64,000 bases of DNA, from contig JAUCBJ010000176.1 in NCBI GenBank assembly GCA_032718475.1, forward strand, positions 1-64,000. Reading direction: 5' to 3'. Source of the DNA: Nemertoderma westbladi (lineage: Eukaryota > Animalia > Xenacoelomorpha). The notes beneath the pieces are model-generated. The model had not been told where the DNA came from. It searched no databases and was given only the letters and a program-made list of their open reading frames with translations. The position numbers were made by a program, and so were the translations under genes. This document shows positions 1 to 21,500 of this stretch, in pieces; the first letter of the stretch is position 1, and every line of letters starts with the position of its first letter.

Positions 1-1300
1 CAGCCGCTTTCCGTTCTGCTTCTGCCACTTTTGCCTCTGCCGCTGCCTCTGCCTCTGCTTCTGCCGCTTTTGCCTTGGCCGCTGCCGCCTTTCTTTCTGC
101 TTCTGCAGCTACCATTGCTGCTTTCTTTCTGTCTTCTATGCGTTTTTTCTTTACTTGTTCTTCCCTTTCTCTAGCGATGCGGAGTTGTTCATCGAATTTA
201 GCTTGGTTCGCCGCTAACCTATCCACATCAATCGCATCTAACACAAGTTTGGCTCCTTCGCTATTAGGGCTAAGTCCCTCTAGCCTTCTCCTCAACTCTT
301 CATCTCCCACAAAACGCTGATAGTCTGACAGATAGATATCAATGGCATCCTTCTTATGCGGTTTCTCTGCCGTCGCTTCACTTTCCACTTGGGAAAAAGT
401 AGCGTCTGTTGATTCTCCATGGGTTGAGCGCTCCTCCAACTGAGCCTTCCACTGAGCTGCTCCTTGAACCTGGCGACTCACCCGTTGAAACCAAGTCTTT
501 ACGGCAACTTGCAACGACGTGTCTTGCTTTCGTTTAGAAGCCTCTTCAAAGGCGGATAAGATTAGCCTAATCCGCAGAACTCTTTCTCTAACTTGATAAA
601 GCAGCGATCCCTGCTCTTGAGGTCCTTGAGGTTGTTGAAAAAGTTGCCTTTCTATTCGCTCCATAGAGCTGAAGAATCCCTGTGCGTATCCGGCTGCGGA
701 CCTCTTCCACACAGCTGGATCGATGGTTTCCTTGGCTACTCCCATCCGGTGTATGTCTTCCCAGGCAGCTTCTGATAAATCAAACGGGAGTCCGGGTCCG
801 GGGAAGTTCCATTGCGACTCGACAATAGACTTCAGTTCTTCACTAGTGTAGCCCGCGTAGCTATCTCTAGTTGTCCGTTGACTCTTCGCCCAATCGATCT
901 GGTGTTCTTCCACCGCGATCAATAACCCGGCGAGCACGGCTGCAGGAAGGATGAGAAGGGGATCCGTATAAACCGCATCCGTCATCTCTGCTCCGCGCTC
1001 GGGTGTCAACTCTACAGTATCATCACTACTGGAGCTGCTGGGCCGCTGAGGCATAAGTTCTTGACTAGCGGGTTGTTGCTGTTCCGCTGCCCTTTGGTCT
1101 CGCTTGACCTGAGCTCGAGTGCCTATGATAGACCTACGATGTTGGACTAGCCTAGGTTCTGTTATTACTACTGGAGGGATGACCTTCCTCACAGTGGGAG
1201 GTGAACTGGATTTACGACCAGACTGTTGTACGTCTCTATCTGAGTCGCAGATAGTTACATCTAATAGACTGTCTGAAAGGTTCTGCCTAGTATCAGACAT
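1..1300 (-). CDS. Gag-like ORF1, N-terminal part (partial, >433 aa, open to window edge)
   Basis: ATG at 1300 (MSDTRQNLSDSLLD...). I translated it by hand and found no stop down to base 2. It is homologous to 7919..9433 and ends in the A/E/K-rich coiled-coil region. It is probably missing from the ORF track because its stop lies outside the window. Confidence 0.85.
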   Translation of the reverse strand, partial: MSDTRQNLSDSLLDVTICDSDRDVQQSGRKSSSPPTVRKVIPPVVITEPRLVQHRRSIIGTRAQVKRDQRAAEQQQPASQELMPQRPSSSSSDDTVELTPERGAEMTDAVYTDPLLILPAAVLAGLLIAVEEHQIDWAKSQRTTRDSYAGYTSEELKSIVESQWNFPGPGLPFDLSEAAWEDIHRMGVAKETIDPAVWKRSAAGYAQGFFSSMERIERQLFQQPQGPQEQGSLLYQVRERVLRIRLILSAFEEASKRKQDTSLQVAVKTWFQRVSRQVQGAAQWKAQLEERSTHGESTDATFSQVESEATAEKPHKKDAIDIYLSDYQRFVGDEELRRRLEGLSPNSEGAKLVLDAIDVDRLAANQAKFDEQLRIAREREEQVKKKRIEDRKKAAMVAAEAERKAAAAKAKAAEAEAEAAAEAKVAEAERKAA

Positions 1301-2649
1301 ATTTGTATGTACAGTTGAATGCCTACTGCTATATTATAGTCTAAGCAAGTCTAGTAACTCAGTATTAATTGCTAGCCTAGTAATCAATTACCGGTACTGC
1401 TACTCAGTGTAGCTTGATATATATATAATATATTAGAATACCGGTATACTTATAGTATATATAACTATATAAGTATTATTACAGACTAGGTTTATCACAG
1501 AATACCGGTATAATTTTAGCACAAATATATATAAATATATAATAGGCCTATCGGAGTACCGGTATACAGCTTACAGTTAGTAGGATATATAATTCTGAAA
1601 TAGAATTAATTACAAGTACCGGTATAATTTCAGCCTAGATTTATAGAAATAAAGATAATAGGCCTATCGTAAATACCGGTATATCAATTATTTTAGAATA
1701 ATTGAATTTCTGAACTTTAGGGTTACTTGGTTACTTTAACTTACTTTATTACCGTTATTTAAGCAGTAATCCAACTTATATTGAGGCCTAATGGTTGTAT
1801 GGTAGGCCTACGATTTATAAATCGTTAGATTTGATTTATAATATATATATACCCGTTTTAATGGGTTTTGTCAATGTTTGAAATAAATGTTATTATTTCT
1901 GGGGAGTAATCACTACACAAAGCGGTGCGCTTTCAGTGAAGTGTTACGTACAGGACACTAAAACAAATAATACTAATTTACCTAAGTTACTTAATACTAC
2001 AAATTACGTACAATTCGGGTTGAGATTACAATCTCTAAATAAACACAAAATTTTACAAAAACACAAATACGAATTTTTAGGGTAATTTTACAAGAAGTCT
2101 ACAAACCAGTCTAACAAAGGGTTAGAAAACTGATTATTACAGCGGACAGGGTACTACGGTATTTGAAATAATAAGTAGTAGTAAATACACTGTGTTGTCC
2201 AGATAGGAAAATACCACCGCCTGACGACCTATAGCCGTATCGCTATAGGTTCTACGTTATGTATCACGGAGTGTCCCTACCTAGAAGTTAATAGAGCTAT
2301 CCAATGTGCCTATTAACCACTTTACAACACAAATATAATGCCTACAATAATTACTTCGGAAAGTACGGTACACTAAACCCTAAATTAGGTACGAGTACTT
2401 GTATAACAAATAATCAGTAGTTAAATATACTTGAACAGCTAAAAGAACCACGGCATCTGCTGGAGTGACCGATGCACAAAATCACCAGTCTTTACCTACG
2501 CCGAGCAGCCCGTATAGTACCGAGGTTAATTTAACTATAACGGTATGTATAACAAACACAATTACTGTAGGAACAAACTTGGGGAATGAATGTTGCGAAT
2601 AATCGCATAAACTCTGAATAATAAATATTACGCTACGCGTACAAACTAC

Positions 2650-3190
2650 TCAAATAAAATACAGACCGAACACTGACAGACTACTATCAAGCCTAAACAA
2701 ACTACGGTATATGCAGACTCCGAAATGATTAGGGAGTATGCGCTCTAACCCAGTAGTGCGACTTATTCTTTAGTTGGGGGTTTACCTTACAGTATTCACT
2801 GCCCCTACTGCCTAATCGTACTTAATCGGACAGATGCTCTACACACGCGGCAATCCGTTCAGACCTAATAACAGCCAGACAACTATCCAGCCTACAAATT
2901 ATCTAAATAAATTATACGCTACCTTTACAGACTTACACAAACAAAGTACAGACCAAACGATGGCAGACTACTCTCAAGCCTAAATAAACCACAGGACATG
3001 CAGACTCCGAAATGATTAGGGAGTATGCGCTCTAACCCAGTAGTGCGACTTATTCTTTAGTTGGGGGTTTACCTTACAGTGTTGCTGCCCCTACTTCCTA
3101 ATCGTACTTAATCGGACAGGTGCTCTACACACACTGTAATCCGTTCAGACTTAACAGCAATCAGACAACAGCTCAGCCTACAAATTGTCT
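2650..3190 (-). repeat. 287-bp tandem duplication in leader of element A
   Basis: The block ATGCAGACTCCGAAATGATTAGGGAGTATGCGCTCTAACCC... occurs at 2711 and 2998. The flanks TACAGACC (2660/2947) and CAGCCTACAAATT (2888/3175) have the same offset. Confidence 0.9.
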
Positions 3191-3429
3191 GTACAATCTG
3201 ATGAGGTTTACACGCCTTCTGTTCAATACTGGCCTACAAACAAATAAAACTGACAGAAATAAGTAAGCTCCAAAAGAAACAAGGGGTGTACAGTCCCTAA
3301 TCTCTTAAACAGCCTACCGGTATACAACAATCAAATCGAATAATACTAGTGTACTTATACGGAAGTAGGTACCGGTCCGGATGATCAGGCAGTCAGGCCT
3401 ACTGGTTACCGGTCGACCGGTACTTTCGA

Positions 3430-3452
3430 CTTTATTGCTTACTGCAATAAAG
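3430..3452 (-). other. Conserved 9-bp stem-loop next to the primer-site position, element A
   Basis: CTTTATTGC-TTACT-GCAATAAAG is a perfect inverted repeat, orthologous to 5656-5680. Confidence 0.7.
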
Positions 3453-3456
3453 AAGC

Positions 3457-3468
3457 TATATCCTTTAA
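3457..3468 (-). promoter_or_regulatory. Putative self-complementary primer-binding site of element A (TTAAAGGATATA)
   Basis: It begins immediately after the LTR-terminal ACA (3471-3469 on the minus strand) and has no TGG. It is the exact reverse complement of minus-strand 4212-4201 (TATATCCTTTAA) in the same LTR. Confidence 0.75.
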
Positions 3469-4679
3469 TGTTCGCGCTTTCAGACCTTTGGCAGTTTAAC
3501 CCGCCAAATTAGAATGTCTTCTAGATAATAAATCTGCTTTTTAGTCTATGACAAGTATTTGATTCACTACACTAGTCGAAACCAATCCGTGCGCGACCAT
3601 TCACCCGCTGGATATTCCCGGGAGATTGGGTTCGACGGTTTAATTTTTATTGCTATGTAAGCCTAATGTATTATTCGACTGACAGTACTATATAATCTCT
3701 GACAATATTATTCACCTTCGGTAATATTAACAGTTCCTTTAGGACGTGGCGCTTTACCTATATAAACAGAGTTATGACTTAAACTACTCACAACGATATG
3801 GCTTAATTATAATCCACATATATGGCGCATTCTTTAGGAATTGCTTCTTTAACAGACTCACTCATACACAATGCTGCACAATACTGCACACTAATCTGCC
3901 AATCTTCACTGATTTTAGTCACATATAAAAGGAACACAGGCTGACTCATGTAGGGTCTATCAAATAACATTAGATTCACTTCAAACCACTTTAACATAAG
4001 TCACAATCGTTATTGGTAACCTTTCTCTCTTACCTTCGGTATATCAAGAATATTGGGTTGCGGGGTTATTTATCGTTATTCCAAATATAATTATTCATCA
4101 ACCATATTATGAAGAACTGACAGCAAATAGCAGTATAAAACAACAAGTCAGTACCGGTATGTCAGCAATGAGATATTCAAGTAGTCAGATGTGAGTTGCG
4201 TTAAAGGATATATGCCCTTTATAATTAAACCTACTAGTGTACGACTAAAAAACAGTACAGCACAAAATACTTCTAAGCCGTTCTTTCTTTGGCTCAAGAC
4301 TGAATGATAAACACTGCACATAGGCATTTCGTCATTTCTCGGAAATTCTCTGTACAAGGAGCCACAAAACGCTCTCATTGGCTGACTGAACTAAGAGACG
4401 CCGTAGAACAAAGGAAATCAACACGTATGAATGTCAGCTGTTAACCGTAGTCATAGTAACTACTGTTCAAGAGTAGCTATCACTCCTTTGCGTCACAAAT
4501 TGCCATAGAATCATAAAATATACCTTTCACAGTACACATACGGAGGAAATAAGTCTTAGATCCTCTAAAAACACCGATACAGTAATAATACGGTCTCTTA
4601 CACTTATCAAATCAACTACAGAGTATTTTAATGTAAAAGATAATAAAAATAACGGGGCAATTCAGCAAAGGCTTTTACA
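3469..4679 (-). repeat. 5' LTR of element A (1211 bp, TGT...ACA)
   Basis: Termini are TGTAAAAGC...GCGCGAACA. Landmarks shared with the B LTR include TAACAGCTG, CCAAT(G/C)AGAGCG, TAGTAGG...TTATA(A/G)AG, GCGCCACGTCCTAAAGGAACTGTTAATATT and CCAGCGGGTGAATGG. Confidence 0.85.
4217..4223 (-). promoter_or_regulatory. Candidate TATA box of LTR A (TATAAAG)
   Basis: Matches the TATA consensus and aligns with TATAGAG at 4878 in LTR B. A CCAAT box lies upstream at about 4381-4377, and a TCA Inr-like site lies about 31 nt downstream. Confidence 0.5.
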
Positions 4680-4877
4680 CATGGTTCTTTGTTTGGCTTG
4701 AACCAATCAGAGCGATTTTTCCTGTTGACGTGTAGCTTTTCGGTCGATCATAAGGAGTGTGTTCAGTCTTACTGTTTTTTTCTTGATACTTTCTTGTTAT
4801 TGCTGTCTAGGCCAGAAACAACGGCTCTAGAGTCAATTCGTTTCATACTTTAAGAAGAAACATTAGTAGGCTTAAAT

Positions 4878-4884
4878 TATAGAG
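4878..4884 (+). promoter_or_regulatory. Candidate TATA box of LTR B (TATAGAG), with CCAAT at 4703-4707
   Basis: Positionally conserved with TATAAAG in LTR A. Inr-like sequences TCAGTC (4898) and CCATTC (4908) lie downstream. Confidence 0.45.
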
Positions 4885-4887
4885 CGT

Positions 4888-4898
4888 ATGACTGTTAT
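4888..4898 (+). other. Putative self-primer segment ATGACTGTTAT (also 13819-13829 in the 3' LTR)
   Basis: Exact reverse complement of 5643-5653. It aligns with the equivalent segment 4212-4201 of element A. Confidence 0.72.
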
Positions 4899-5642
4899 CA
4901 GTCAAATCCATTCACAATTCAATACTTTGTTGTTATTACTGTTTAACATACATTATTATACTGCTATTTACTGTTGTGTTTGGTTGAATATTATTTGGAG
5001 AACATATATAAAAAACCCAAATTTCCCAATTTTCTTGATACACTACAGGTTAGAGAGACGGGTTATATATAGCGATTGCGACTTATATTGTTGTGGTTTG
5101 TAGTGAATTTAATGCTATTTGATAAGCACTACATTGGTCCGTTGCTATTCCCTTTATATATGATAAAATTCATTGACGGTCGGCAAATTAGTGAGCAGTA
5201 TTGTGTGTTACCGGTAGTGTGCATGATTGTGATTGATAACTAAGCATTTCCTAAAGAATGCGCCTCATACGTGAATCTTAAGCCTTACCAACTTACCGTT
5301 GTGATTAGTATAAGTCATATCTCTGTTTACTTAGATAGAGCGCCACGTCCTAAAGGAACTGTTAATATTTCCCGAAAGTAAATAATATTAGTCAGAAATT
5401 AATTATTAACGATCAATCGAATAATACAATACAGTAAGCTTCACTGCAATAATAATTTAAGCCCTCAGAATCCAGTCTCCCGGGATTATCCAGCGGGTGA
5501 ATGGACGCGCACTAGGCTGGCTTCTGCTAATGTTGTGTTTATTGGTATTAAATATTTGTCATCTTCTAAAGTATATTTATAAACCAAAAGACATATAAAT
5601 TTTGGCAGGTTAAACTGCTAAAGGTCTTCAAAAGCGCGTACA

Positions 5643-5653
5643 ATAACAGTCAT
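5643..5653 (+). promoter_or_regulatory. Putative self-complementary primer-binding site of element B (ATAACAGTCAT)
   Basis: Starts at the first base after the LTR-terminal ACA and lacks the TGG that would pair with a tRNA CCA end. It is 11/11 complementary to 4888-4898. Confidence 0.75.
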
Positions 5654-5655
5654 TG

Positions 5656-5680
5656 ACTTTATTGCAGTAAGCAATAAAGT
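5656..5680 (+). other. 10-bp perfect stem-loop containing AATAAA
   Basis: ACTTTATTGC-AGTAA-GCAATAAAGT; conserved in element A at 3430-3452. Confidence 0.7.
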
Positions 5681-5707
5681 TGAAAGTACCGGTCAACCGG
5701 TAAACCT

Positions 5708-5835
5708 GAACCGGTACTTCTGTAGGTCAGTAGGCCCAACTGCCAGAACCGGTACTGCTGTAGGTCCGTAGGTCCAACTGCCAGAACCGGTACTTCTGTA
5801 GGTCCGTAGGCCCAACTGTCCTAACCGGTACTTCC
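5708..5835 (+). repeat. 38-bp minisatellite, 3 copies plus a partial copy
   Basis: Units of GAACCGGTACTTCTGTAGGTC(A/C)GTAGGCCCAACTGCCA start at 5708, 5746 and 5784, with a partial unit at 5822. Confidence 0.9.
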
Positions 5836-6014
5836 AGCATAAGTCAGTAAGTACATTAGTATTATTCGATTTTGATTATTGTATACCGGTAGGTCTCGAT
5901 ATTAAATCGGGGACGCCTGGTTTTTATTGGGATTTTACTTAGGTCTATTTCTGTCAGTTTTATTTCCTAGTAAGTTAATATTGAGCTGAAGACGTGTAAG
6001 TCTGCTCAGATTGT

Positions 6015-6555
6015 TCAGATAATTGTAGGCCGGACTGTTGTCAGATTGTTGTTGGGTTTGGAGAGATTACGGCGTGTGTGGAGTTTGTCCGATAGAGTGC
6101 CAGTTAGTAAGTTGGGGCAGCCATTGCTGTAAGGTCAATCCCCTCTTAAAGAATAAGTCGTACTACCGTGTTAGAACGCATACTAACTAACAATTTTGGA
6201 ATCTGCACATACTGTAGTTTATTTAGGCTTGACAGTATTCTGCCAGCGTTTTGGCTTGTGTTTGTTTGTGTGGTCTGTTCAGATACCGTAATAGTTATTA
6301 CTCAGATATTTGTAGGCTGGATTGTTGTCTAGCTATTATTAGGTCTGAAGAGATTGCTGCTTGTGTAGAGTTTGTCTGATAAAGTGCCAGTTAGTAAGTT
6401 GGGGCAGTCATAACTGTAAGGTCAATCCCCTCTTAAAGAATAAGTCGTACTACCGTGTTAGAACGCATACTAACTAACCGTTTTGGAATCTGCACATACA
6501 GTAGTTTATTTAGGCTTGGTGGTAGTCTGCCAGCGTTTGGTCTGTATTTTGTTTG
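6015..6555 (+). repeat. 287-bp tandem duplication in leader of element B
   Basis: TGTAAGGTCAATCCCCTCTTAAAGAATAAGTCGTACTACCGTGTTAGAACGCATACTAACT is identical at 6128 and 6415. Confidence 0.9.
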
Positions 6556-7529
6556 AGTATTCTGTACGGGTAGCGTAATATTTATTATTCAGAGTTTATG
6601 CAATTATTCGCAACATTCATGTCCCCAAGTTTATTCCTACAGTAATTGTGTTTGTTACACATACCGTTATAGTTAAATTAACCCCGGTACTACACGGGCT
6701 GCTTGGCGTAGGAAAAGACTGGTGACTTTGTGCTTCGGTCACTCCAGCAGATGCCGTGGTTCTTTTAACTGTTCAAGTATATTTAACTACTGATTATTTG
6801 TTGTACCAGTACTTGTACCTAATTTAGGGTTTAGTGTACAGTGCTTTCCGAAGTAATTAGTGTGTAGGCAGTATATTTGTGTTGTAAAGTGGTTAATAGG
6901 CACGCTGGATCTGGTAGTCCGCGGTAATTAACTTCTAGGTAGGAACACTCCGTGATACATAACGTAGTACCTATAGCGATACGGTTATAGGTCGTCAGGC
7001 GGTGGTATTTTCCTATCTGGACAGTGCAATATATTTACTACTACTTATTATTTTCAAATACCGTAGTACCCTGTCCGTTGTAATAACCAGAATTCTAACC
7101 CTTTGTTAGGCTGGTTTGTAGACTTCCTGTAAAATTACCCTAAAATTTCGTACGTAATATTTTGTTGTGTTAAATTAGAGAATTAATCTCACCCGTATCG
7201 TAAGTAATTTGTAGTATTAAGTAACTTAGGTAAATTAGAATTATCTGTTTTAGTGTCCCATAGGTAGCACTTCACTGAGAGCGCACAGCTTTTGTGTAGT
7301 GATTACTTCCCAGAAATAATAACATCTATTTCAATATTGTAACAAAAACCCCTTTTTAACGGGTATATATCTATTATAAATCAACTCAAACGATTTATAA
7401 ATAGTAGGCCTGCCATACAACAACTAGGTCTCAATATCAGTTGGACTACTGCTTAAATAACGGTAACAAAGTAAGTTAAAGTAACCAAGTAACCCTAAAA
7501 TATTCAGAAATTCAAATATTCTAAAATAA

Positions 7530-7830
7530 TTGACATACCGGTATTTACCATAGGCTTATTATATTTATTTCTATAAATTTGAGCAGAAATCATACCGGTA
7601 TTCTGTAATTAATTCTAGTAATAATTATACTTATATACTATAAGTGTCAGCTGTATACCGGTATTCACGATAGGCCTATTATATATTTATATATATTTGT
7701 GCTAAAATTATATACCGGTACTCTGTGACAAATCTAGTCTGTAATAATACTTATATATATACTATAAGCATACCGGTATTCTAATATATTATATATATAT
7801 ATCACGCTACACTGAGTAGCAGTATCGGTA
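7530..7830 (+). repeat. Diverged ~120-bp (2 x ~60) AT-rich repeat with periodic TACCGGTA palindromes
   Basis: ACCGGT occurs at 7537, 7594, 7657, 7714 and 7772, with a degenerate copy at 7824. The contexts at 7537 and 7657 align. The pattern is mirrored in element A at about 1390-1680. Confidence 0.75.
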
Positions 7831-7918
7831 ATTAATTGTTAGGCTAACGGTGATACTGAATTACTAGACTTACTTTGACTGTATTTATAGCCTTAGGCAT
7901 TCAACTGTGTAAACAAAC

Positions 7919-9433
7919 ATGTCAGACGCAACCCAATCACTGTCAGATAGTCTCTTAGAAAGTGTTAGAATGAGTATTAGACTTAGACAGCGTATTAAAA
8001 GGATCTGTGATCAAGATAAAGGTATAGAACATCCCAGATCCAAGTCTAAGTCACCTACTATTGTAAGAAAGGCCACCCCTACAGTAGTAGTGTCAGACCC
8101 TAGGCTAGTAGAACAGCGTAGGTCTATCATCGGCACTCGGGCCCAAGTCAAGCGGGATCAAGAAGCAGCTATCAAACAGCAGCAACATCCTAGCCAAGAA
8201 CCTAGTTCTCAGCGGCCCGATAGCTCCAGTAGTTCGGATACTGTTGAGCGGACGCCCGAACGTGGAGCGAAGATGGCGGATACGGTTTATGATGAACGGC
8301 CAACCTATGAAGAATCAACCAACGCCACTTCTTCTCAAGTGGAAAGCGAAGTGGAAAGCGAAGTGGAAAGCGAATTAACAGCAGCAGAGAAGCCGCAAAC
8401 TAGAGACGCCATTGACATCTATCTGTCAGACTATCAGCGATTCCTAGGAGACGAAGAGTTGAGGAGACAACTGTCTGGACTTCGCCCTAATAGTGAAGGA
8501 ACCAAGCTTGTGTTGGACGCAATCGATGCGGAAATGTTAGCTGCAGAACAAGCTAAATTTGATGAAAAACTCCGCCTCGTTAGAGTCCAAGAAGAACAAA
8601 TAAAGAAAAAACAGATAGAGGACCGAAAGGCAGCAGCAGTAAAGGCGGCAGAAGCAGAAGCAGCAAAGGCGGCGGCAGAAGTAGAAGCAGAAAGAAAGGC
8701 AGCGGAAGTAGAAGCAAAAGGAAAGGCAGCGGTAGCAGAAGCAGAAAGAAAGGCGGCAGCGGCAATGGCAAAGGCAGTGGCAGAAGCAGAACGGAGAGCG
8801 TCTGAGGAGACTACCCAACTGGAGTTGGAAAATCTGCAAGAGACGCAAGACTACATAAATAAACAGCTAACTGCTAGTCGAATGCAGAGGATGAGACGAT
8901 CTACTCCAAAACGCCAGGGATACACATCATCGGAGGAAAGCGAAACCACCAATCCTGAAGGCGGAGGAAATAGATCTCGTCTAAGCAGGCGTAGAAAAAC
9001 ATCTCACCGTCATAAACTGCCTGATTTGCCCCCAGCTGTCAGAAGACAACTAGCTAGCACAGACTTAGGTAGTACAGAACCCACAGACCAAATTATTAAG
9101 GTCAAAAGACTCCCTACCATAGTTGATGAGCCTGAAATAATTAGGCCTGTCGTTCCCAAAGTCACTCCTGTGCTAGAGACCCCTGCACTTCCAGAGCTTA
9201 ACTCTAAATTCCCCTTACGCAGTACTACACTGTCTGTACCCGGTAGAACAGTCCATGAGAATATCCCTGTCCTGGAAGCTGAGAGAGAAATCAAAGATTT
9301 GTCTCCCGTCGTCCCGCGTCAGCCCGCTACAATGTTGGCGACTCCCGCTTCGGCGGTTGAGTGGGTAGAGGAGGGACGGCGGGGGATGAATCTCCTGTGT
9401 CGGACAGATGCAGGAGACTGTCCACCAATTTAA
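7919..9433 (+). CDS. Gag-like ORF1, N-terminal part (low-complexity and A/E/K coiled coil), 504 aa
   Basis: First long ORF after the leader and homologous to the minus-strand ORF at 1..1300. It overlaps the DUF1759-like ORF in another frame. Confidence 0.8.
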   Translation: MSDATQSLSDSLLESVRMSIRLRQRIKRICDQDKGIEHPRSKSKSPTIVRKATPTVVVSDPRLVEQRRSIIGTRAQVKRDQEAAIKQQQHPSQEPSSQRPDSSSSSDTVERTPERGAKMADTVYDERPTYEESTNATSSQVESEVESEVESELTAAEKPQTRDAIDIYLSDYQRFLGDEELRRQLSGLRPNSEGTKLVLDAIDAEMLAAEQAKFDEKLRLVRVQEEQIKKKQIEDRKAAAVKAAEAEAAKAAAEVEAERKAAEVEAKGKAAVAEAERKAAAAMAKAVAEAERRASEETTQLELENLQETQDYINKQLTASRMQRMRRSTPKRQGYTSSEESETTNPEGGGNRSRLSRRRKTSHRHKLPDLPPAVRRQLASTDLGSTEPTDQIIKVKRLPTIVDEPEIIRPVVPKVTPVLETPALPELNSKFPLRSTTLSVPGRTVHENIPVLEAEREIKDLSPVVPRQPATMLATPASAVEWVEEGRRGMNLLCRTDAGDCPPI

Positions 9434-10499
9434 GGGAACAGTAAGGGAAGGTAGGGCCGAATTGCAAGAAGTGCAGCAAAGTATCGCGCTAGAACGCGAC
9501 AAATTAGTCAACATACCAAAGGGTATATCCATACCCCCTGTAACATTGTGTCAACCTGTTAGGTCTGAAGTATTACATGCGCAAGGTGTGGAGCCTACAC
9601 GCATCTATACTGCTAGTGAAGTAGAAACCCCTATAGCAAACCCTATTAAGGGTGATTATAGACCTGTTGTTAATGATGTTCCCTATAGACCTGATAATGA
9701 TCCGAGAAATTTATATACCGATAATTCGATATTAAATAACACGATGGCCCAAGAAAGCTTTACGCGTCAGATGGCTAGAACAGAAGCCCGCCAAGCGGTC
9801 AAAGTGGGAGAGATCGTTAAATTCAATGGAGATGAGATGAAATGGCTACCTTTCAATGAATATTACAAAGATAGCATACAAAACTCTGTACTATCTAACG
9901 GAGAGAAACTTAGGTTCCTCATCAAGTGCTTGGAAGGACCTCCCAGGTTAATGGCGTTAAAGTTTATTGGACATCCAGATGGATTAAGACAAGTTTGGGA
10001 TACATTAAACATCAGGTATGGTAACAAAGATAACATAGCTAAGTATTTGTATGCAAAATTAGTAGCCCCCCGACACTTCCTTAGTAGCGGGATTATAGAG
10101 TTTTCCGATGAAATTCAGGAAATCTGTAGACAATTGGACTGGTTAGGTAAGTCTCATGAATATCAGAGTTCCATGGTTATTGGAGCAGTAGTCTCTACTT
10201 TACCCAAGGGTGGAGTATGTACACGTTGGGACAAGAAAGTGTTGTACATGAATGAACAACAACGACGAAGCCCTACCATGACTGATCTCATATCCTTCTT
10301 AGATGGTGAAGTAAAACTACAACTCATCAAGCAGTCCAGAGAGAAAACATCGGAAAATAAGGTAAGTGAGAAACCTGCTTCTAGGAGAAGAGTAACACCG
10401 GTGTGTTACACTGACGACAGCGAAAGCCAAGCTTCTCAAGAAAGACACAGCTTAGTAAAGTACAATAAAGCCACTACTATATTCAAGTATTATTGGTAG
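9408..10499 (+). CDS. gag: BEL/Pao Gag capsid-like region (DUF1759-like), frameshifted from ORF1 and apparently 3'-truncated
   Basis: KFNGDEMKWLPF...LSNGEKLRFLIKCLEGPP...VWDTLNIRYGN fits the Pao gag pattern FxGD..W..F...LS..EK..YL...L.G...W..L..RYG. The usual downstream zinc knuckles are absent. Confidence 0.85.
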   Translation: MQETVHQFKGTVREGRAELQEVQQSIALERDKLVNIPKGISIPPVTLCQPVRSEVLHAQGVEPTRIYTASEVETPIANPIKGDYRPVVNDVPYRPDNDPRNLYTDNSILNNTMAQESFTRQMARTEARQAVKVGEIVKFNGDEMKWLPFNEYYKDSIQNSVLSNGEKLRFLIKCLEGPPRLMALKFIGHPDGLRQVWDTLNIRYGNKDNIAKYLYAKLVAPRHFLSSGIIEFSDEIQEICRQLDWLGKSHEYQSSMVIGAVVSTLPKGGVCTRWDKKVLYMNEQQRRSPTMTDLISFLDGEVKLQLIKQSREKTSENKVSEKPASRRRVTPVCYTDDSESQASQERHSLVKYNKATTIFKYYW

Positions 10500-10683
10500 G
10501 CAGAGTATTAGGAATGCAAAGTTCAGATCCTCGTGTCTCGGCTAAACCAAGCTCTGGGTAGACCTTGGAAACGACTTGCCTCTTCACACTGACATTGCTT
10601 CGTGCGATATTGCTCTTCTACCTTATATTAAATAATACATATAGTAGCGTGATGTCCCTCTAACAGTAGCGTAAAACGCAAAT

Positions 10684-10990
10684 AAATCTGTTAAACCTTT
10701 TGACCATCTGTAATTCTAGTCGATTAAGATATCGCGGCACCCACCGATATACTTGAAAGACAAATTCTAGAATCAGTGGTTAACGTCCCCAGACAAGTTC
10801 TGGAATAAATCGGTGCCCATCTTAAATATTAATTTAATATTTATTAAAATCTGTAAAATTCAGATCCGTTAACAATTCTAGTCGATTAAGATATCGTAGC
10901 ACTTACCGATACTCTTAAAAGACAAATTTCATAGAATTAAGGATCCTATGTCCCCAGACCTGCTCTGGAATCAAATTGTGTCAATTTTAA
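10684..10990 (+). repeat. 162-bp diverged tandem duplication
   Basis: AATTCTAGTCGATTAAGATATCG occurs at 10712 and 10874. GTCCCCAGAC and TCTGGAAT recur in both copies. Confidence 0.85.
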
Positions 10991-11790
10991 CATCAAATAA
11001 TAAAATTCACGGGAATAAATTTAAATTCATATTTTAAATGAATTTCATAAATTGTCATTTTGTACAATTTATAACATTCCCAAAATTCCATTAATTAATA
11101 GATCATGGGAGCGGAGATTCATCCTATTGAGTGTATTAGAGTGCGAGAATCTCCAACATATAGTCAATAGCCGATAAAATTAATAAAATCATGCATAAAG
11201 AGGATATTGACAATTAAAGAATTATTATTAAATAGCATCCCAGATCTGTATGCATGAGAATTACCCTAATTCTACCGCTAGCATTCCATAATGTCACCAT
11301 AGCAACACCCACGCTAGAATTAGAAGCAAGTTAAAAGAACAATAGAAAGCTTGTCCCATTGCATAGCATAGAGAATATAGCACACTGTTAGTATCCAAGG
11401 ATACACAGTAATAACGTGACATTCTGGAAGGCACTGACTAACGGACAAATGGCCTGTATGTGTACAATTGGTGACAGTTGTGTGGAATTTGTGCGTTTGT
11501 AGGTGAATGTTACTGCTAAGGTGTGTTTACAGTAGCTAGTCGCAATTGTGAAAGTAACCCAACTCTCCTATAGAAAGAACCTAAAGTGGATTCAAGCCTT
11601 TGGGACGGACAGTGGAGTGACTTGTGCCGGTTATCGTTGTCGTACTGTTGCTACATGTTGGCGTAAACACCGCGACAACGGTACATCGGCGCTGAGGATC
11701 CCACTGTCCGGGGGCAAAGAGAGGTGGGCAGCGACGTCCGCTCGCCTAAACATAAACTCATTTCGATATTAACAAACTCAGATAGCAGAT

Positions 11791-13239
11791 ATGACGGAGT
11801 TGATAGAAGATGATCTTGGTATCAAGGAGCGATATACTCTACCTTTGCAAGCATTTGTGGATAGCTTAATACGCGGTGAAGCCGATCCAACCATTACGGA
11901 GGATGATGGTCGTTATATCGAACCGCCGATGTCCCAAGAGCAACTTGCGCGTGAATTGGACTATCAAAAATCCACCGCGCGCTATACGCATCGTAATAGT
12001 ACGTATATGGACTTCCTAACTACCGGCCATCCTATCGATTTACATGATACGGACGATGTAGACACCGAAAGGGAAATGGTTCTATTTAAATATCATACCC
12101 AGCGGAGTCGGAACGATAAACCGAGAATAGATCACGAAAATTCTATTCGTAACAGACTGGGAAGACGAACCAATATGCCTAGAATCTGAGGAGATTCAGC
12201 CTATCGCGCCCGGAACAGCGACAACGATTACATCCTAGAATGGTATCAAGGTCCACAGTGTCTCACTGTGTACGATTATCGACATGCCAACTATGTTTCT
12301 AGGCAACATTGTCGGTTATGCGCATCGAGAGACCACGATACGCCCATGGACACCAACGTCCGCTGTTCCTATTTCCAAGAACAACCGACTATGGAAATTT
12401 ATTGCGCATATTGCAGACTCAATAACCTGCATATCTTTGCGGTTTGCCCTCAATTTATGACTCAATGTCACCATTGTCAACTAAAGGGACATGCTAGTTT
12501 CGACTGCCCTTTTAATCACGATTTGGAAAGCGTAGATGAAATGATCACACTGCGTTACATCAGAGCTTGGGAAGCGAACGCTGATTTACATTGTGATTCG
12601 CGACATCGCGATTATCCCGGACGCGCTTACAAAGGAGTTTATGCGTTCCATCCTTATCTATTCGCTTCGGTTGAACAGAAATCACGCATATCAAGTTACG
12701 AGCTACTGAAGCGCGTCGGAGAATGTATTTCAACCAAATTCGTACGCAAATTTCTCAGGAGTGTTAATCCTAGCGACCTTCATTCCTATAGCTTAATCAA
12801 TTATATCCGTCAGGATCCGGACTATGGAGACTTGTTTGTTAACTCACACCCTGAGTTACAGGAAGTATATCGACGGCCTTACGAATACCGAGCCCGCGAA
12901 CGCGAGTTGGAAAGGACCATTAAACCCCGGAAGTTTCTAACTGCCTATGGTCCACCCACGGCCCTCGTTCAGACCACTCGTAAAGGACCCGTAAGAGCGG
13001 CTGTCTTGAAACGAGCTCTCAAAGCCGTTAGACCCCTCTCACCTGACGTTGATGTCAATCAACCCGGTACTTCGACTGACGGATACACCGACCATAATCC
13101 TACACCCTCTGATGAAATCATATTGCACCCTTCACCCAGGAGTTATAGCCCTCCTTGTAAAGTGGCTCGCCCCAAAGAGAAAAGGACTCTGGCTAGCTTT
13201 AAAAAACTGCGTAAACGCCGTCCGCGCAAGAAAGACTAA
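11791..13239 (+). pseudogene. Accessory ORF (~482 codons) with triple CCHC zinc-finger array and basic C-terminal tail; one in-frame TGA at 12187-12189
   Basis: Track ORFs 11791..12189 and 12268..13239 share a frame, and the gap between them is open (GDSAYRARNSDNDYILEWYQGPQCLT). The Cys/His array spans 12310-12507 and the protein ends KKLRKRRPRKKD. Confidence 0.8.
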
Positions 13240-13303
13240 CTGTTTAGAGTATTTACGTATATTAGAAACTGTGATTTTGTATATTTTATAGACTCAAATC
13301 CCA

Positions 13304-13317
13304 TTTTCTGGGAGCGG
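13304..13317 (+). promoter_or_regulatory. Polypurine tract (TTTTCT-GGGAGCGG) abutting the 3' LTR
   Basis: A T-run followed by a G-rich tract directly precedes TGT at 13318, the usual geometry for the plus-strand primer. Confidence 0.7.
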
Positions 13318-14573
13318 TGTAAAAGCTTCTGTGGGATATAACTGGCCCCTTTGCTTCGCAATCCAGTTTCCCCCCAGGCGCTGGAATACTCTAAAAAGGT
13401 TCTCTAACTGTATATATATTCCCCTCGCCCTCAAGGTACCGTTACAGGTGTTTTAACGGACATAAAAGTCATTCTGCTATATACGTGTTTTAGCGGACAT
13501 GGTAAGACAAAAAACCTGCAATGCGACAAATACCTTTCATAGCTTAGCCGTGATGATTCATATTACGACATCTAACAGCTGGTTGCTGACATGGAAACAG
13601 CCATTGGAAGCATGGTTCTTTGTTTGGCTTGAACCAATCAGAGCGATTTTTCCTGTCGACGTGTAGCTTTTCGGTCGATCATAAGGAGTGTGTTCAGTCT
13701 TACTGTTTTTTTCTTGATACTTTCTTGTTATTGCTGTCTAGGCCAGAAACAACGGCTCTAGAGTCAATTCGTTTCATACTTTAAGAAGAAACATTAGTAG
13801 GCTTAAATTATAGAGCGTATGACTGTTATCAGTCAAATCCATTCACAATTCAATACTTTGTTGTTATTACTGTTTAACATACATTATTATACTGCTATTT
13901 ACTGTTGTGTTTGGTTGAATATTATTTGGAGAACATATATAAAAAACCCAAATTTCCCAATTTTCTTGATACACTACAGGTTAGAGAGACGGGTTATATA
14001 TAGCGATTGCGACTTATATTGTTGTGGTTTGTAGTGAATTTAATGCTATTTGATAAGCACTACATTGGTCCGTTGCTATTCCCTTTATATATGATAAAAT
14101 TCATTGACGGTCGGCAAATTAGTGAGCAGTATTGTGTGTTACCGGTAGTGTGCATGATTGTGATTGATAACTAAGCATTTCCTAAAGAATGCGCCTCATA
14201 CGTGAATCTTAAGCCTTACCAACTTACCGTTGTGATTAGTATAAGTCATATCTCTGTTTACTTAGATAGAGCGCCACGTCCTAAAGGAACTGTTAATATT
14301 TCCCGAAAGTAAATAATATTAGTCAGAAATTAATTATTAACGATCAATCGAATAATACAATACAGTAAGCTTCACTGCAATAATAATTTAAGCCCTCAGA
14401 ATCCAGTCTCCCGGGATTATCCAGCGGGTGAATGGACGCGCACTAGGCTGGCTTCTGCTAATGTTGTGTTTATTGGTATTAAATATTTGTCATCTTCTAA
14501 AGTATATTTATAAACCAAAAGACATATAAATTTTGGCAGGTTAAACTGCTAAAGGTCTTCAAAAGCACGTACA
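13318..14573 (+). repeat. 3' LTR of element B (1256 bp, TGTA...TACA)
   Basis: The start TGTAAAAGC is shared with LTR A. The end GCACGTACA coincides with the end of identity to the 5' copy and with the ACA end of LTR A. Confidence 0.88.
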
Positions 14574-15264
14574 AGTGGCCACGACCCCCTGAGATACTGT
14601 AGTAAAGACCCGGACCCCTTTACGAGGATCGAACCCACGAGTGGCCACGACCCCCTGAGATACTGTAGTAAAGACCCGGACCCCTTTACGAGGATCGAAC
14701 CCACGAGTGGCCACGACCCCCTGAGATACTGTAGTAAAGACCCGGACCCCTTTACGAGGATCGAACCCACGAGTGGTCACGACCCCTGAGATACTGTAGT
14801 AAAGACCCGGACCCCTTTACGAGGATCGAACCCACGAGTGGCCACGACCCCCTGAGATACTGTAGTAAAGACCCGGACCCCTTTACGAGGATCGAACCCA
14901 CGAGTGGCCACGACCCCTGAGATACTGTAGTAAAGACCCGGACCCCTTTACGAGGATCGAACCCACGAGTGGCCACGACCCCCTGAGATACTGTAGTAAA
15001 GACCCGGACCCCTTTACGAGGATCGAACCCACGAGTGGCCACGACCCCCTGAGATACTGTAGTAAAGACCCGGACCCCTTTACGAGGATCGAACCCACGA
15101 GTGGCCACGACCCCCTGAGATACTGTAGTAAAGACCCGGACCCCTTTACGAGGATCGAACTCACGAGTGGCCACGACCCCCTGAGATACTGTAGTAAAGA
15201 CCCGGACCCCTTTACGAGGATCGAACTCACGAGTGGCCACGACCCCCGGAGATACTGTAGTAAA
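14574..15264. repeat. 66-bp tandem array (10 units plus a partial) with a B-box-like GGTTCGATCC on the minus strand
   Basis: Unit is AGTGGCCACGACCCCCTGAGATACTGTAGTAAAGACCCGGACCCCTTTACGAGGATCGAACCCACG. Two units are 65 bp. Confidence 0.95.
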
Positions 15265-15279
15265 AACAAGGCCGACAGA

Positions 15280-18200
15280 AGTGCACTACCGGTACCTACC
15301 TGATGATACCGGCACTGATGCACCCGTTGTAGTGTACTACCGGTACCTACCTGATGGTACCGGCACTGATGCACCCGTTGTAGTGTACTACCGGTACCTA
15401 CCTGATGGTACCGGCACTGATGCACCCGTTGTAGTGTAATACCGGTACCTACCTGATGGTACCGGCACTGACGTACCCGTTGTAGTGTACTACCGGTACC
15501 TACCTGATGATACCGGCACTGATGCACCCGTTGTAGTGCACTACCGGTACATACCTGATGGTACCGGCACTGATGCACCCGTTGTAGTGTACTACCGGTA
15601 CCTACCTGATGATACCGGCACTGATGCACCCGTTGTAGTGTACTACCGGTACCTACCTGATGATACCGGCACTGATGCACTCGTTGTAGTGTACTACCGG
15701 TACCTACCTGATGGTACCGGCACTGATGCACCCGTTGTAGTGTACTACCGGTACCTACCTGATGGTACCGGCACTGATGCACCCGTTGTAGTGTACTACC
15801 GGTACCTACCTGATGGTACCGGCACTGATGCACCCGTTGTAGTGTAATACCGGTACCTACCTGATGGTACCGGCACTGACGTACCCGTTGTAGTGTACTA
15901 CCGGTACCTACCTGATGATACCGGCACTGATGCACCCGTTGTAGTGCACTACCGGTACATACCTGATGGTACCGGCACTGATGCACCCGTTGTAGTGTAC
16001 TACCGGTACCTACCTGATGATACCGGCACTGATGCACCCGTTGTAGTGTACTACCGGTACCTACCTGATGATACCGGCACTGATGCACTCGTTGTAGTGT
16101 ACTACCGGTACCTACCTGATGGTACCGGCACTGATGCACCCGTTGTAGTGTACTACCGGTACCTACCTGATGGTACCGGCACTGATGCACCCGTTGTAGT
16201 GTACTACCGGTACCTACCTGATGGTACCGGCACTGATGCACCCGTTGTAGTGTACTACCGGTACCTACCTGATGATACCGGCACTGATGCACCCGTTGTA
16301 GTGTACTACCGGTACCTACCTGATGATACCGGCACTGATGCACTCGTTGTAGTGTACTACCGGTACCTACCGGATGATACCGGCACTGATGCACTCGTTG
16401 TAGTGTACTACCGGTACATACCTGATGGTACCGGCACTGATGCACCCGTTGTAGTGTACTACCGGTACCTACCTGATGATACCGGCACTGATGCACCCGT
16501 TGTAGTGCACTACCGGTACCTACCTGATGATACCGGCACTGATGCACTCGTTGTAGTGTACTACCGGTACCTACCTGATGGTACCGGCACTGATGCACCC
16601 GTTGTAGTGTACTACCGGTACCTACCTGATGATACCGGCACTGATGCACCCGTTGTAGTGTACTACCGGTACCTACCTGATGGTACCGGCACTGATGCAC
16701 CCGTTGTAGTGCACTACCGGTACCTACCTGATGATACCGGCACTGATGCACCCGTTGTAGTGTACTACCGGTACCTACCTGATGGTACCGGCACTGACGT
16801 ACCCGTTGTAGTGTACTACCGGTACCTACCTGATGGTACCGGCACTGATGCACCCGTTGTAGTGTACTACCGGTACATACCTGATGGTACCGGCACTGAC
16901 GTACCCGTTGTAGTGTACTACCGGTACCTACCTGATGGTACCGGCACTGATGCACCCGTTGTAGTGTACTACCGGTACCTACCTGATGGTACCGGCACTG
17001 ATGCACCCGTTGTAGTGTACTACCTGTACCTACCTGATGGTACCGGCACTGATGCACCCGTTGTAGTGTACTACCGGTACCTACCTGATGATACCGGCAC
17101 TGATGCACCCGTTGTAGTGTACTACCTGTACCTACCTGATGGTACCGGCACTGATGCACCCGTTGTAGTGTACTACCTGTACCTACCTGATGATACCGGC
17201 ACTGATGCACCCGTTGTAGTGTACTACCGGTACCTACCTAATGATACCGGCACTGATGCACCCGTTGTAGTGTACTACCGGTACATACCTGATGGTACCG
17301 GCATTGATGCACCCGTTGTAGTGTACTACCGGTACCTACCTGATGATACCGGCACTGATGCACCCGTTGTAGTGCACTACCGGTACCTACCTGATGATAC
17401 CGGCACTGATGCACCCGTTGTAGTGTACTACCGGTACCTACCTGATGGTACCGGCACTGATGCACTCGTTGTAGTGTACTACCGGTACCTACCTGATGAT
17501 ACCGGCACTGATGCACCCGTTGTAGTGTACTACCGGTACCTACCTGATGGTACCGGCACTGATGCACTCGTTGTAGTGTACTACCGGTACCTACCTGATG
17601 ATACCGGCACTGATGCACCCGTTGTAGTGTACTACCGGTACCTACCTGATGGTACCGGCACTGATGCACTCGTTGTAGTGTACTACCGGTACCTACCTGA
17701 TGGTACCGGCACTGATGCACCCGTTGTAGTGTACTACCGGTACCTACCTGATGGTACCGGCACTGATGCACCAGTTGTAGTGTACTACCGGTACCTACCT
17801 GATGGTACCGGCACTGATGCACTCGTTGTAGTGTACTACCGGTACCTACCTGATGATACCGGCACTGATGCACCCGTTGTAGTGCACTACCGGTACCTAC
17901 CTGATGATACCGGCACTGATGCACCCGTTGTAGTGTACTACCGGTACCTACCTGATGATACCGGCACTGATGCACCCGTTGTAGTGTACTACCGGTACCT
18001 ACCGGATGATACCGGCACTGATGCACCCGTTGTAGTGTACTACCGGTACCTACCTGATGGTACCGGCACTGATGCACCCGTTGTAGTGTACTACCGGTAC
18101 CTACCTGATGATACCGGCACTGATGCACCCGTTGTAGTGTACTACCGGTACCTACCGGATGATACCGGCACTGATGCACCCGTTGTAGTGTACTACCGGT

Positions 18201-18440
18201 ACCTACCTGATGATACCGGCACTGATGCACCCGTTGTAGTGTACTACCGGTACCTACCGGATGATACCGGCACTGATGCACTCGTTGTAGTGTACTACCG
18301 GTACCTACCTGATGGTACCGGCACTGATGCACCCGTTGTAGTGTAATACCGGTACCTACCTGATGGTACCGGCACTGATGCACCCGTTGTAGTGTACTAC
18401 CGGTACCTACCTGATGGTACCGGCACTGATGCACCCGTTG
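15280..18440. repeat. 51-bp tandem array (~62 units) with internal 8-bp inverted repeat
   Basis: Unit is AGTGTACTACCGGTACCTACCTGATG(G/A)TACCGGCACTGATGCACCCGTTGT, containing CCGGTACC-N8-GGTACCGG. Confidence 0.97.
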
Positions 18441-18526
18441 AGAATTTCTGCAGACGCCATTAGATACTGGAAATCCATTTTGTAATCTAAATTAAATAAA
18501 ATAGTGTCAATAGCAAATATTGTGAT

Positions 18527-21500
18527 AACGAGAACAAGATAGTTCGGGGTTGAGACAAAACCAGAACGAGATAGGTCGGGGTTGAGACAAAACGAGATAG
18601 GTCGGGGTTGAGACAAAACCAGAACGAGATAGGTCGGGGTTGAGACAAAACCAGAACGAGATAGGTCAGGGTTGAGACAAAACCAGAACGAGATAGGTCG
18701 GGGTTGAGACAAAACCAGAATGAGATAGGTCGGGGTTGCGACAAAACGAGATAGGTCGGGGTTGAGACAAAACGAGATAGGTCGGTGTTGAGACAAAACG
18801 AGATAGGTCGGGGTTGAGACAAAACCAGAACGAGATAGGTTGGGGTTGAGTCAAAACCAGAACAAGATAGGTCGGGGTTGAGACAAAACCAGAACGAGAT
18901 AGGTCGGGGTTGAGACAAAACGAGAACGAGATAGGTCGGGGTTGCGACAAAACCAGAATGAGATAGGTCGGGGTTGAGACAAAACCAGAACGAGATAGGT
19001 CGGGGTTGAGACAAAATCAGAACGAGATAGGTCGGGGTTGAGACAAAACCAAAACGAGATAGGTCGGGGTTGAGACAAAACGAGATAGGTCGGGGTTGAG
19101 ACAAAACCAGAACGAGATAGGTCGGGGTTGCGACAAAACCAGAATGAGATAGGTCGCGGTTGAGACAAAACGAGATAGGTCGGGGTTGAGACAAAACCAG
19201 AACGAGATAGGTCGGGGTTGCGACAAAACCAGAATGAGATAGGTCGGGGTTGCGACAAAACCAGAATGAGATAGGTCGGGGTTGAGACAAAACCAGAACG
19301 AGATAGGTCGGGGTTGAGACAAAACCAGAACGAGATAGGTCGGGGTTGCGACAAAACCAGAACGAGATAGGTCGGGGTTGCGACAAAACCAGAATGAGAT
19401 AGTTCGCGGTTGAGACAAAACCAGAACGAGATAGGTCGGGGTTGAGACAAAACCAGAACGAGATAGGTCGGGTTGAGACAAAACCAAAACGAGATAGGTC
19501 GGGGTTGAGACAAAACGAGATAGGTCGGGGTTGAGACAAAACCAGAACGAGATAGGTCAGGGGTTGAGACAAAACCAGAACGAGATAAGTCGGGGTTCAG
19601 ACAAAACCAGAACGAGATAGGTCGGGGTTGAGACAAAACCAGAACGAGATAGGTCGGGGTTGAGACAAAACGAGATAGGTCGGGGTTGCGACAAAACCAG
19701 AATGAGATAGGTCGGGGTTGAGACAAAACCAAAACGAGATAGGTCGGGGTTGAGACAAAACGAGATAGGTCGGGGTTGAGACAAAACCAGAACGAGATAG
19801 GTCGGGGTTGAGACAAAACCAAAACGAGATAGGTCGGGGTTGAGACAAAACGAGATAGGTCGGGGTTCAGACAAAACCAGAACGAGATAGGTCGGGGTTG
19901 AGACAAAACCAGAACGAGATAGGTCGGGGTTGAGACAAAACCAGAACGAGATAGGTCAGGGGTTGAGACAAACCCAGAACGAGATAAGTCGGGGTTCAGA
20001 CAAAACCAGAACGAGATAGGACGGGGTTGAGACAAAACCAGAACGAGATAGGTCGGGGTTCAGACAAAACCAGAACGAGATAGGTCAGGGGTTGAGACAA
20101 AACCAGAACGAGATAAGTCGGGGTTCAGACAAAACCAGAACGAGATAGGTCGGGGTTCAGACAAAACCAGAACGAGATAGGTCGGGGTTGAGACAAAACC
20201 AGAACGAGATAGGTCAGGGGTTGAGACAAAACCAGAACGAGATAAGTCGGGGTTCAGACAAAACCAGAACGAGATAGGTCGGGGTTCAGACAAAACCAGA
20301 ACGAGATAGGTCGGGGTTCAGACAAAACCAGAACGAGATAGGTCGGGGTTGAGACAAAACCAGAACGAGATAGGTCGGGGGTTGAGACAAAACCAGAACG
20401 AGATAAGTCGGGGTTCAGACAAAACCAGAACGAGATAGGTCGGGGTTCAGACAAAACCAGAACGAGATAGGTCGGGGTTCAGACAAAACCAGAACGAGAT
20501 AGGTCGGGGTTGAGACAAAACGAGAACGAGATAGGTCGGGGTTGAGACAAAACCAGAACGAGATAGGTCGGGGTTGAGACAAAACGAGATAGGTCGGGGT
20601 TCAGACAAAACGAAACGAGATAGGTCGGGGTTGAGACAAAACCAGAATGAGATAGGTCGGGGTTGAGACAAAACCAGAACGAGATAGGTCGGGGTTCAGA
20701 CAAAACCAGAACGAGATAGGTCGGGGTTGAGACAAAACCAGAACGAGATAGGTCGGGGTTCAGACAAAACCAGAACGAGATAGGTCGGGGTTGAGACAAA
20801 ACGAGAACGAGATAGGTCGGGGTTGAGACAAAACCAGAACGAGATAGGTCGGGGTTGAGACAAAACCAGAACGAGATAGGTCGGGGTTCAGACAAAACCA
20901 GAACGAGATAGGTCGGGGTTCAGACAAAACCAGAACGAGATAGGTCGGGGTTGAGACAAAACGAGAACGAGATAGGTCGGGGTTCAGACAAAACCAGAAC
21001 GAGATAGGTCGGGGTTGAGACAAAACGAGAACGAGATAGGTCGGGGTTGAGACAAAACCAGAACGAGATAGGTCGGGGTTCAGACAAAACGAAACGAGAT
21101 AGGTCGGGGTTGAGACAAAACGAGATAGGTCGGGGTTCAGACAAAACCAGAACGAGATAAGTCGGGGTTCACACAAAACCAGAACGAGATAGGTTGGGGT
21201 TCAGACAAAACCAGAACGAGATAGGTCGGGGTTGCGACAAAACGAGATAGGTCGGGGTTGAGACAAAACGAGAACGAGATAGGTCGGGGTTGAGACAAAA
21301 CCAGAACGAGATAGGTCGGGGTTGAGACAAAACGAGATAGGTCGGGGTTGAGACAAAACCAGAACGAGATAGGTCGGGGTTGAGACAAAACGAGATAGGT
21401 CAGGGGTTGAGACAAAACCAGAACGAGATAAGTCGGGGTTCAGACAAAACCAGAACGAGATAGGTCGGGGTTGAGACAAAACCAGAACGAGATAGGTCGG

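Follow-up and report, generated by a model that had tools for sequence, protein, structure and literature searches.

Closest to the case described here are retrotransposons that prime reverse transcription with a segment of their own RNA. The primer of Tf1 is 11 nt long (PMC7175516), and for this element a three-duplex pretzel has been described, which consists of the duplex between primer and primer-binding site (PBS) and of two duplexes in which PBS-adjacent sequence pairs with the LTR (10.1101/2022.12.06.519325). Self-priming has been demonstrated for Tf1, and predictions of it cover Tf1/sushi relatives and, in all, more than one superfamily; for the TAR lineage of Ty1/copia (Houba, Osr-1) and the plant element Tcn1, the prediction refers to an LTR complement of at least 10 bp that begins 0-5 bp after the 5' LTR (PMC6317226). 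The Belpaoviridae, whose replication is poorly understood, are described with an 18-nt PBS for tRNA-Arg or tRNA-Gly and with LTRs of 0.2-1.2 kb (PMC8742986), and the BEL/Pao Gag carries a triple Cys-His box at its end (PMC554778). A report of self-priming in a BEL/Pao element was not found in the literature searched, which took in further papers on retrotransposon priming (PMC3601003, PMC5341516, PMC2864245, PMC3118150, PMC6934838, PMC5443660, PMC13524379); most subscription papers, Repbase and GyDB lie outside this coverage.

The window analysed here, a 64-kb stretch of DNA, contains two related elements, A and B, and in each the sequence following the 5' LTR is the exact reverse complement of a segment of that same LTR. 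From the analysis as a whole, it appears fairly probable that A and B prime reverse transcription in a Tf1-like manner, with the 5'-proximal LTR segment of their own RNA. What is seen is likely a known mechanism, self-priming, here met in a superfamily for which tRNA priming is described, and its most novel element is likely a covarying decoy of the PBS. New here are the predicted stems flanking the PBS, the covarying split decoy and the presence of the Pao peptidase domain in long relatives of the Gag protein. A self-primed BEL/Pao family would, if true, extend tRNA-free priming to all three LTR superfamilies, a point of relevance to the question of an ancestral or a recurrent origin; its members would be independent of host tRNA, and annotation based on the PBS would miss them.

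Layout and classification of the two elements

Positions 1-14,573 hold the two LTR elements, arranged head to head, and satellites make up the rest of the window (Table 1). B, on the plus strand, begins with the remnant of a 5' LTR (4680-5642) and ends with a complete 3' LTR (13318-14573) that follows a purine-rich stretch. A occupies the minus strand, where its 5' LTR spans 4679-3469, and continues beyond the window start. A sits in reverse orientation in the 5' LTR of its relative B (4679/4680), 293 nt past the start of that LTR; because of this insertion, the 5' LTR of B is reduced to 963 bp and the direct repeat of B begins only at 4680. The repeat (4680-5643 versus 13611-14574) contains two differences and has ACA as its terminus. 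The complete LTRs of A and B both open with TGTAAAAGC and close with ACA, and their identity is 72% over 1,155 aligned columns. The borders are further supported by contigs from other sequencing runs, which depart from the window sequence at 3468 and 5643 (run X4, two contigs each), and by one contig that runs on from 4680 into polypurine-tract-like sequence known from B. With two differences at 963 sites, the LTRs of B indicate a young element, copied recently with its present PBS.

Table 1. Positions of the observed and predicted features of elements A and B in the window
Element	Feature	Position	Strand	Remarks
A	N-terminal part of Gag-like ORF	2-1333	-	Runs off window start; similar to B ORF1 region
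A	Leader arm of distal LTR:leader stem	3336-3346	-	Pairs with 3678-3668; 11 bp, predicted p = 0.99; identical pairs in B
A	9-bp hairpin right after PBS	3430-3452	-	Alternative pairing with LTR 3662-3645
A	PBS, non-tRNA, 12 nt	3457-3468	-
A	5' LTR, TGT...ACA	3469-4679	-	1211 bp; contig end at 3468 and PPT-like continuation at 4680
A	U5-IR-like arm	3591-3599	-	Pairs with last 9 LTR nt (3477-3469); best LTR duplex site
A	Predicted rod hairpin	3800-4231	-	Primer segment in 5' arm; z -3.4; 0/100 shuffles as good
A	Split decoy PBS	3816-3852	-	3852-3847 and 3823-3816; surrounds conserved side hairpin
A	Candidate self-primer, 12 nt	4201-4212	-	Homologous 11-nt core 4211-4201
A	Conserved block upstream of primer	4213-4241	-	TATA-like motif at 4223
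B	5' LTR, final 963 bp	4680-5642	+	Interrupted by A
B	Predicted rod hairpin	4866-5288	+	z -2.7; 2/100 shuffles as good
B	Candidate self-primer, 11 nt	4888-4898	+
B	Split decoy PBS	5236-5272	+	5236-5240 and 5265-5272
B	LTR arms of two LTR:leader stems	5416-5452	+	5416-5427 with 5859-5870; 5443-5452 with 5659-5668
B	U5-IR-like arm	5502-5510	+	Pairs with 5634-5642; 6-bp helix p = 0.79
B	PBS, non-tRNA, 11 nt	5643-5653	+
B	Hairpin right after PBS	5657-5679	+
B	Gag, two overlapping frames	7913-10499	+	7913-9433 and 9390-10499; DUF1759 in second
B	Extra 3' ORF	11791-13239	+	Three Cys-His-like motifs; in-frame stop at 12187-12189
B	Polypurine-tract-like stretch	13310-13317	+
B	3' LTR	13318-14573	+	1256 bp; 2 differences from 5' LTR over 963 shared bases

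Both leaders contain a tandem duplication of ~290 bp (2620-3190; 6015-6593), and the leader extends over more than 2 kb ahead of gag. Both U3 regions, though of low identity, retain a CCAAT box and a CAGCTG word (4381 and 4443 on the minus strand; 4704; 13573).

The assignment of the elements rests on Gag and the LTR ends, by which they are of BEL/Pao type, in a window without pol. The Gag of B matches PF03564 (DUF1759) with an E-value of 4e-13 and has a DUF1759 cluster as its top match in the Atlas (0.95); the part of the Gag-like ORF seen in A (2-1333) gave no Pfam match. A HMMER search with B Gag retrieved 290 relatives, with identities of 21-35% among the 150 listed, whereas two word-seeded protein searches returned nothing at E 0.001. 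From the 29 relatives of at least 1000 aa among these 150, 26 were taken into a domain scan, in which Peptidase_A17 was found in 17/26, DUF5641 in two more and RVT_2 in 0/26, among the matches listed. The DUF1759 match and the Peptidase_A17 domains support the original prediction as far as a BEL/Pao-type Gag is concerned. The elements resemble the Belpaoviridae in these two respects, in the TGT...ACA ends of LTRs at the top of the size range and in the polypurine tract; unlike them, A and B have no 18-nt PBS for the 3' end of a host tRNA, and this copy has neither pol nor a triple Cys-His box in Gag. In detail, pol, RT and RNase H were found neither in B nor in the visible part of A within the window, and the Gag frame of B ends without Cys-His boxes, consistent with an internal deletion. 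The extra 3' ORF of B (11791-13239) has a basic tail and Cys-His-like motifs whose spacing is unlike the Gag triple box; its part past the stop has no Pfam match, and its matches to zinc-knuckle clusters in the Atlas, all below 0.9, are a lead only.

The self-complementary PBS and its predicted flanking stems

Direct sequence comparison confirms the complementarity on which the original prediction was built: B 5643-5653 matches, as an exact reverse complement, both 4888-4898 and 13819-13829 in the 3' LTR of B, and A 3468-3457 matches 4212-4201 in the same way. Neither PBS starts with TGG, the pairing ends at the LTR edge in both elements and, by alignment, the LTR primer segments of A and B are homologous; all of this had been claimed, as had the finding that the PBS differs between the elements, which it does at 5/11 positions, while each is fully paired with its own LTR. 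Aligned on the LTR edge, 6/11 primer:PBS pairs are the same and 5/11 carry changes in both partners, with no pair broken, a pattern with a rough joint chance of 9e-6 in a comparison of two primer/PBS pairs only. The leader that follows is nearly invariant, with 36/37 identical bases from the start of the post-PBS hairpin. A Markov estimate gives a chance of ~3e-4 (A) and of 8e-4 to 9e-4 (B) that the PBS finds a match at any place in the LTR. Among internal positions, the observed match length is reached by 1/3,448 in A and 6/7,655 in B, and one of these six is the PBS and three belong to a single conserved leader stem. Each PBS matches the LTR of the other element over 6 nt only, and in each LTR no other site forms as good a duplex with the PBS, the margin being about 4.5-5 kcal/mol. 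The complementarity is a real, non-chance feature. An extension of the duplex in the 5' direction into the TATA-like motif was rejected as weak, with 26/1,199 LTR 12-mers as good in A and 272/1,244 in B, and a spliced primer is unneeded, the segment being contiguous in both elements.

With an 11-nt PBS that complements their own LTR and lies at the edge of the 5' LTR, and with predicted flanking duplexes, A and B are like Tf1, Tf2 and Tj1 of the Tf1/sushi group of Ty3/gypsy chromoviruses (PMC4600332); they differ from this group in the BEL/Pao-type Gag and in the distance from primer start to LTR end, which is about 745-755 nt. Whereas Tf1 uses the 11 nt at the very start of its RNA as primer, that of A and B is a candidate 5'-proximal segment only. 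The analysis suggests that the elements likely work like Tf1, yet are not members of Tf1/sushi, a group marked by a Ty3/gypsy Gag-Pol with a chromodomain integrase, as their Gag is DUF1759 with Pao-type relatives. Both also carry an LTR complement as described for the TAR lineage and Tcn1, although they belong to a different superfamily and host kingdom.

The analogy to Tf1 is strengthened by the stems predicted on both sides of the PBS, one of them with a compensatory change. The last nine LTR bases can pair with LTR 1081-1089 in A and 1116-1124 in B, in both cases the top site of the 5' LTR; this predicted U5-end stem has -11.9/-12.1 kcal/mol and contains one A-U/U-A exchange between the elements, while it does not appear in the MFE structure of A. 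The leader following the PBS is predicted to pair with LTR 1018-1035 in A (second-best site) or 1051-1066 in B (best site) and otherwise to form a 9-bp local hairpin, and a distal LTR:leader stem of 11-12 bp is predicted in both elements with p 0.95-0.99. In B, the LTR arms of the LTR:leader stems (5416-5452) hold poly(A)-signal-like hexamers. The fold of U5 plus leader has z-scores of -6.1 (B) and -3.9 (A), as compared with -1.4/+0.6 for U3 and -0.5 for gag as controls (25 shuffles each). The helices compared were picked from folds, so that a count of '0 broken' partly reflects selection. When all predicted pairs are mapped by sequence alignment, changed pairs are still paired in only 27/76 cases from B to A and 16/78 from A to B; alignment-based covariation elsewhere in the rod, described below, is thus weak. 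Retroviruses have PBS-flanking stems too, and for this reason the stems alone cannot separate self-priming from tRNA priming. Of the two differences between the LTRs of B, one (5636 / 14567) disrupts the predicted U5-end stem, and does so in the 3' LTR alone.

A predicted split decoy of the PBS and a candidate switch

Covariation of the PBS could in itself arise by copying of any primer with that sequence, because the cDNA of Tf1 carries a copy of the PBS (PMC11042837). A further partner of the primer segment, which the original prediction overlooked, bears on this point. Folded separately, A and B each place the primer segment in a rod of 420-440 nt, where it is predicted to pair with a mimic of the PBS about 350-390 nt downstream, split by a conserved side hairpin. 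The decoy region aligns between A and B without gaps over 45 nt, 35 of them identical, and changes at exactly the 5/11 positions at which the primer varies; four of these are Watson-Crick pairs in both elements, and the fifth pairs in A only. Unlike that of the PBS, the covariation of the decoy is not explicable by primer copying. In the passages of the Tf1 literature consulted, a covarying split decoy is not described for Tf1, which would set A and B apart.

The candidate primer may act in a three-way switch, a proposal that we put forward tentatively: the 11-nt segment would coevolve with the true PBS and with the split decoy in R, and only its 5' copy would be released, the 3' copy being masked. 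On the reading favoured above, the transcript would start at the primer segment or shortly before it, and the segment would exchange its decoy partner for the PBS. An autonomous partner would supply RNase H in trans, which would then cut after the last base of the segment, and the freed 3'-OH would allow copying of U5 and of R, which would be long at roughly 550 nt. U3 bases would lengthen the rod in the 3' LTR copy and keep that primer copy masked, and in the 5' copy alone poly(A)-like hexamers would be hidden by the LTR:leader stems. In this manner, the covarying decoy suggests how an RNA that contains the primer segment twice could draw on a single copy.

Predicted energies are consistent with parts of this sequence of events. 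The primer copy in the 3' LTR of B is predicted to be paired at 9/11 positions (p 0.86-0.99). For an RNA that begins at the primer, 9.5 (B) and 4.1 (A) kcal/mol are needed to free primer and PBS, as against 15.3-15.9 (B) and 5.7-13.9 (A) kcal/mol with upstream starts, for instance 15.9 for a start at 4865 in B and 9.9-13.9 for starts at 4235 and 4300 in A. The primer:PBS duplex would return 12.4 (B) and 11.6 (A) kcal/mol; by their lower freeing cost, the energetics favour an RNA start at the primer. Primer:PBS pairing was absent from unconstrained nested folds (seven start points per element), which cannot hold a pseudoknot.

Variation among contigs and alternative sources of the primer

The element family is present in sequencing runs of two organisms, one of them with three studies. 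One contig from X4 and three from X6 follow A through its primer block and diverge at 4197-4200, which was counted for self-priming (four contigs, two runs), and further contigs diverge upstream of the primer, at 4240-4251. The divergence on both sides points to an island of ~40 nt, read from alignment ends, which ends at the primer 3' end and is common to the contigs. In one contig of X6 (depth 79), the match to A stops three bases past the LTR end and gives way to a third non-TGG sequence, followed by a hairpin of the TTTAT..ATAAA type; this may be a third PBS or the flank of a 3' LTR. The stretch right after the primer (4900-4930; 4170-4197) is highly variable among contigs and contains short TCA-type repeats. 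A 31- to 59-fold drop in summed contig depth right after the primer (4/4 runs) was not counted, since contig depth cannot rank parts. A 21-nt leader motif was searched in metagenomes, with three loci, all chance matches of 21-27 nt, and in viral contigs, with none.

The original prediction of self-priming by the LTR segment gains from the covarying PBS and loses by the location of the RNA 5' end, against which its own placement of the segment downstream of a TATA motif argues. The first base of the TATA-like motif is LTR 457 (A) or 492 (B), 11 and 10 nt before the primer segment, and initiator-like bases follow 31-32 nt after the motif in both elements, as read by eye. The usual TATA-to-start spacing would put the start 9-12 nt past the primer segment, and as a working promoter the motif would thus yield an RNA 5' end without the primer. 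With a real TATA, the segment would be found only in U3 near the RNA 3' end, and self-priming would have to proceed from the 3' LTR copy. Alternatively, the AT-rich motif would serve as a poly(A) signal, so that the RNA ends at the segment. In either case, the RNA would circularise and its 3' end would provide the primer, or a second packaged RNA would do so. In accord with this, a poly(A)-like ATTATA hexamer lies 19 (A) or 17 (B) nt before the end of the segment with a U-rich stretch downstream, and the conserved island (4241-4200) could represent a short R. Priming from the 3' copy nevertheless seems unlikely in either form. The B motif, TATAGAG, is a poor TATA by the consensus, with G at position 5, and the block around it may owe its conservation to the rod base instead of a promoter. 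As the last base of the B primer is U, exact removal of a poly(A) tail would be needed; the 3' copy is predicted to be masked if R reaches the decoy; and other poly(A)-like hexamers, near LTR 1005-1065, reside in predicted stems that exist only in the 5' copy. A shared initiator-like 9-mer at LTR 376 is off the alignment diagonal and serves as a lead only.

The primer might also be a host RNA, such as a tRNA half or another small RNA, with the LTR segment acting as a regulatory mask over the PBS until priming. Half-tRNA priming exists in Ty1/copia lineages (PMC6317226), and folding predictions also place the segment in an alternative structure, which makes a role in switching plausible. Host priming would, however, require two host RNAs for PBSs that differ at 5/11 sites, and perhaps one more for a third PBS type, and would leave the pairing that stops exactly at the LTR edge in both elements, neither with a TGG start, to be accounted for; we regard it as improbable. 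A relic without function, or a fold-back by chance in defective elements, is a highly improbable account of the complementarity: pol is absent from the seen part of both, and AT-rich sequence folds easily, but the chance of the match is about 1e-3 or less per element, against it also stands the joint covariation, three-way in that it includes primer, PBS and decoy, and B was copied recently with this PBS.

Directly after the 3' LTR of B lies a 66-bp tandem repeat (14574-15267), on the minus strand of which a stretch resembles a tRNA T-arm/B-box. ARAGORN predicts no tRNA in the window, the repeat region included, and an Rfam scan of 1-19,500 gave one sub-threshold match, taken as chance, and nothing for the repeat. 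A 51-bp satellite follows at 15280-18440, and an array of 26/32-bp units (~18500-64000) then makes up most of the window.
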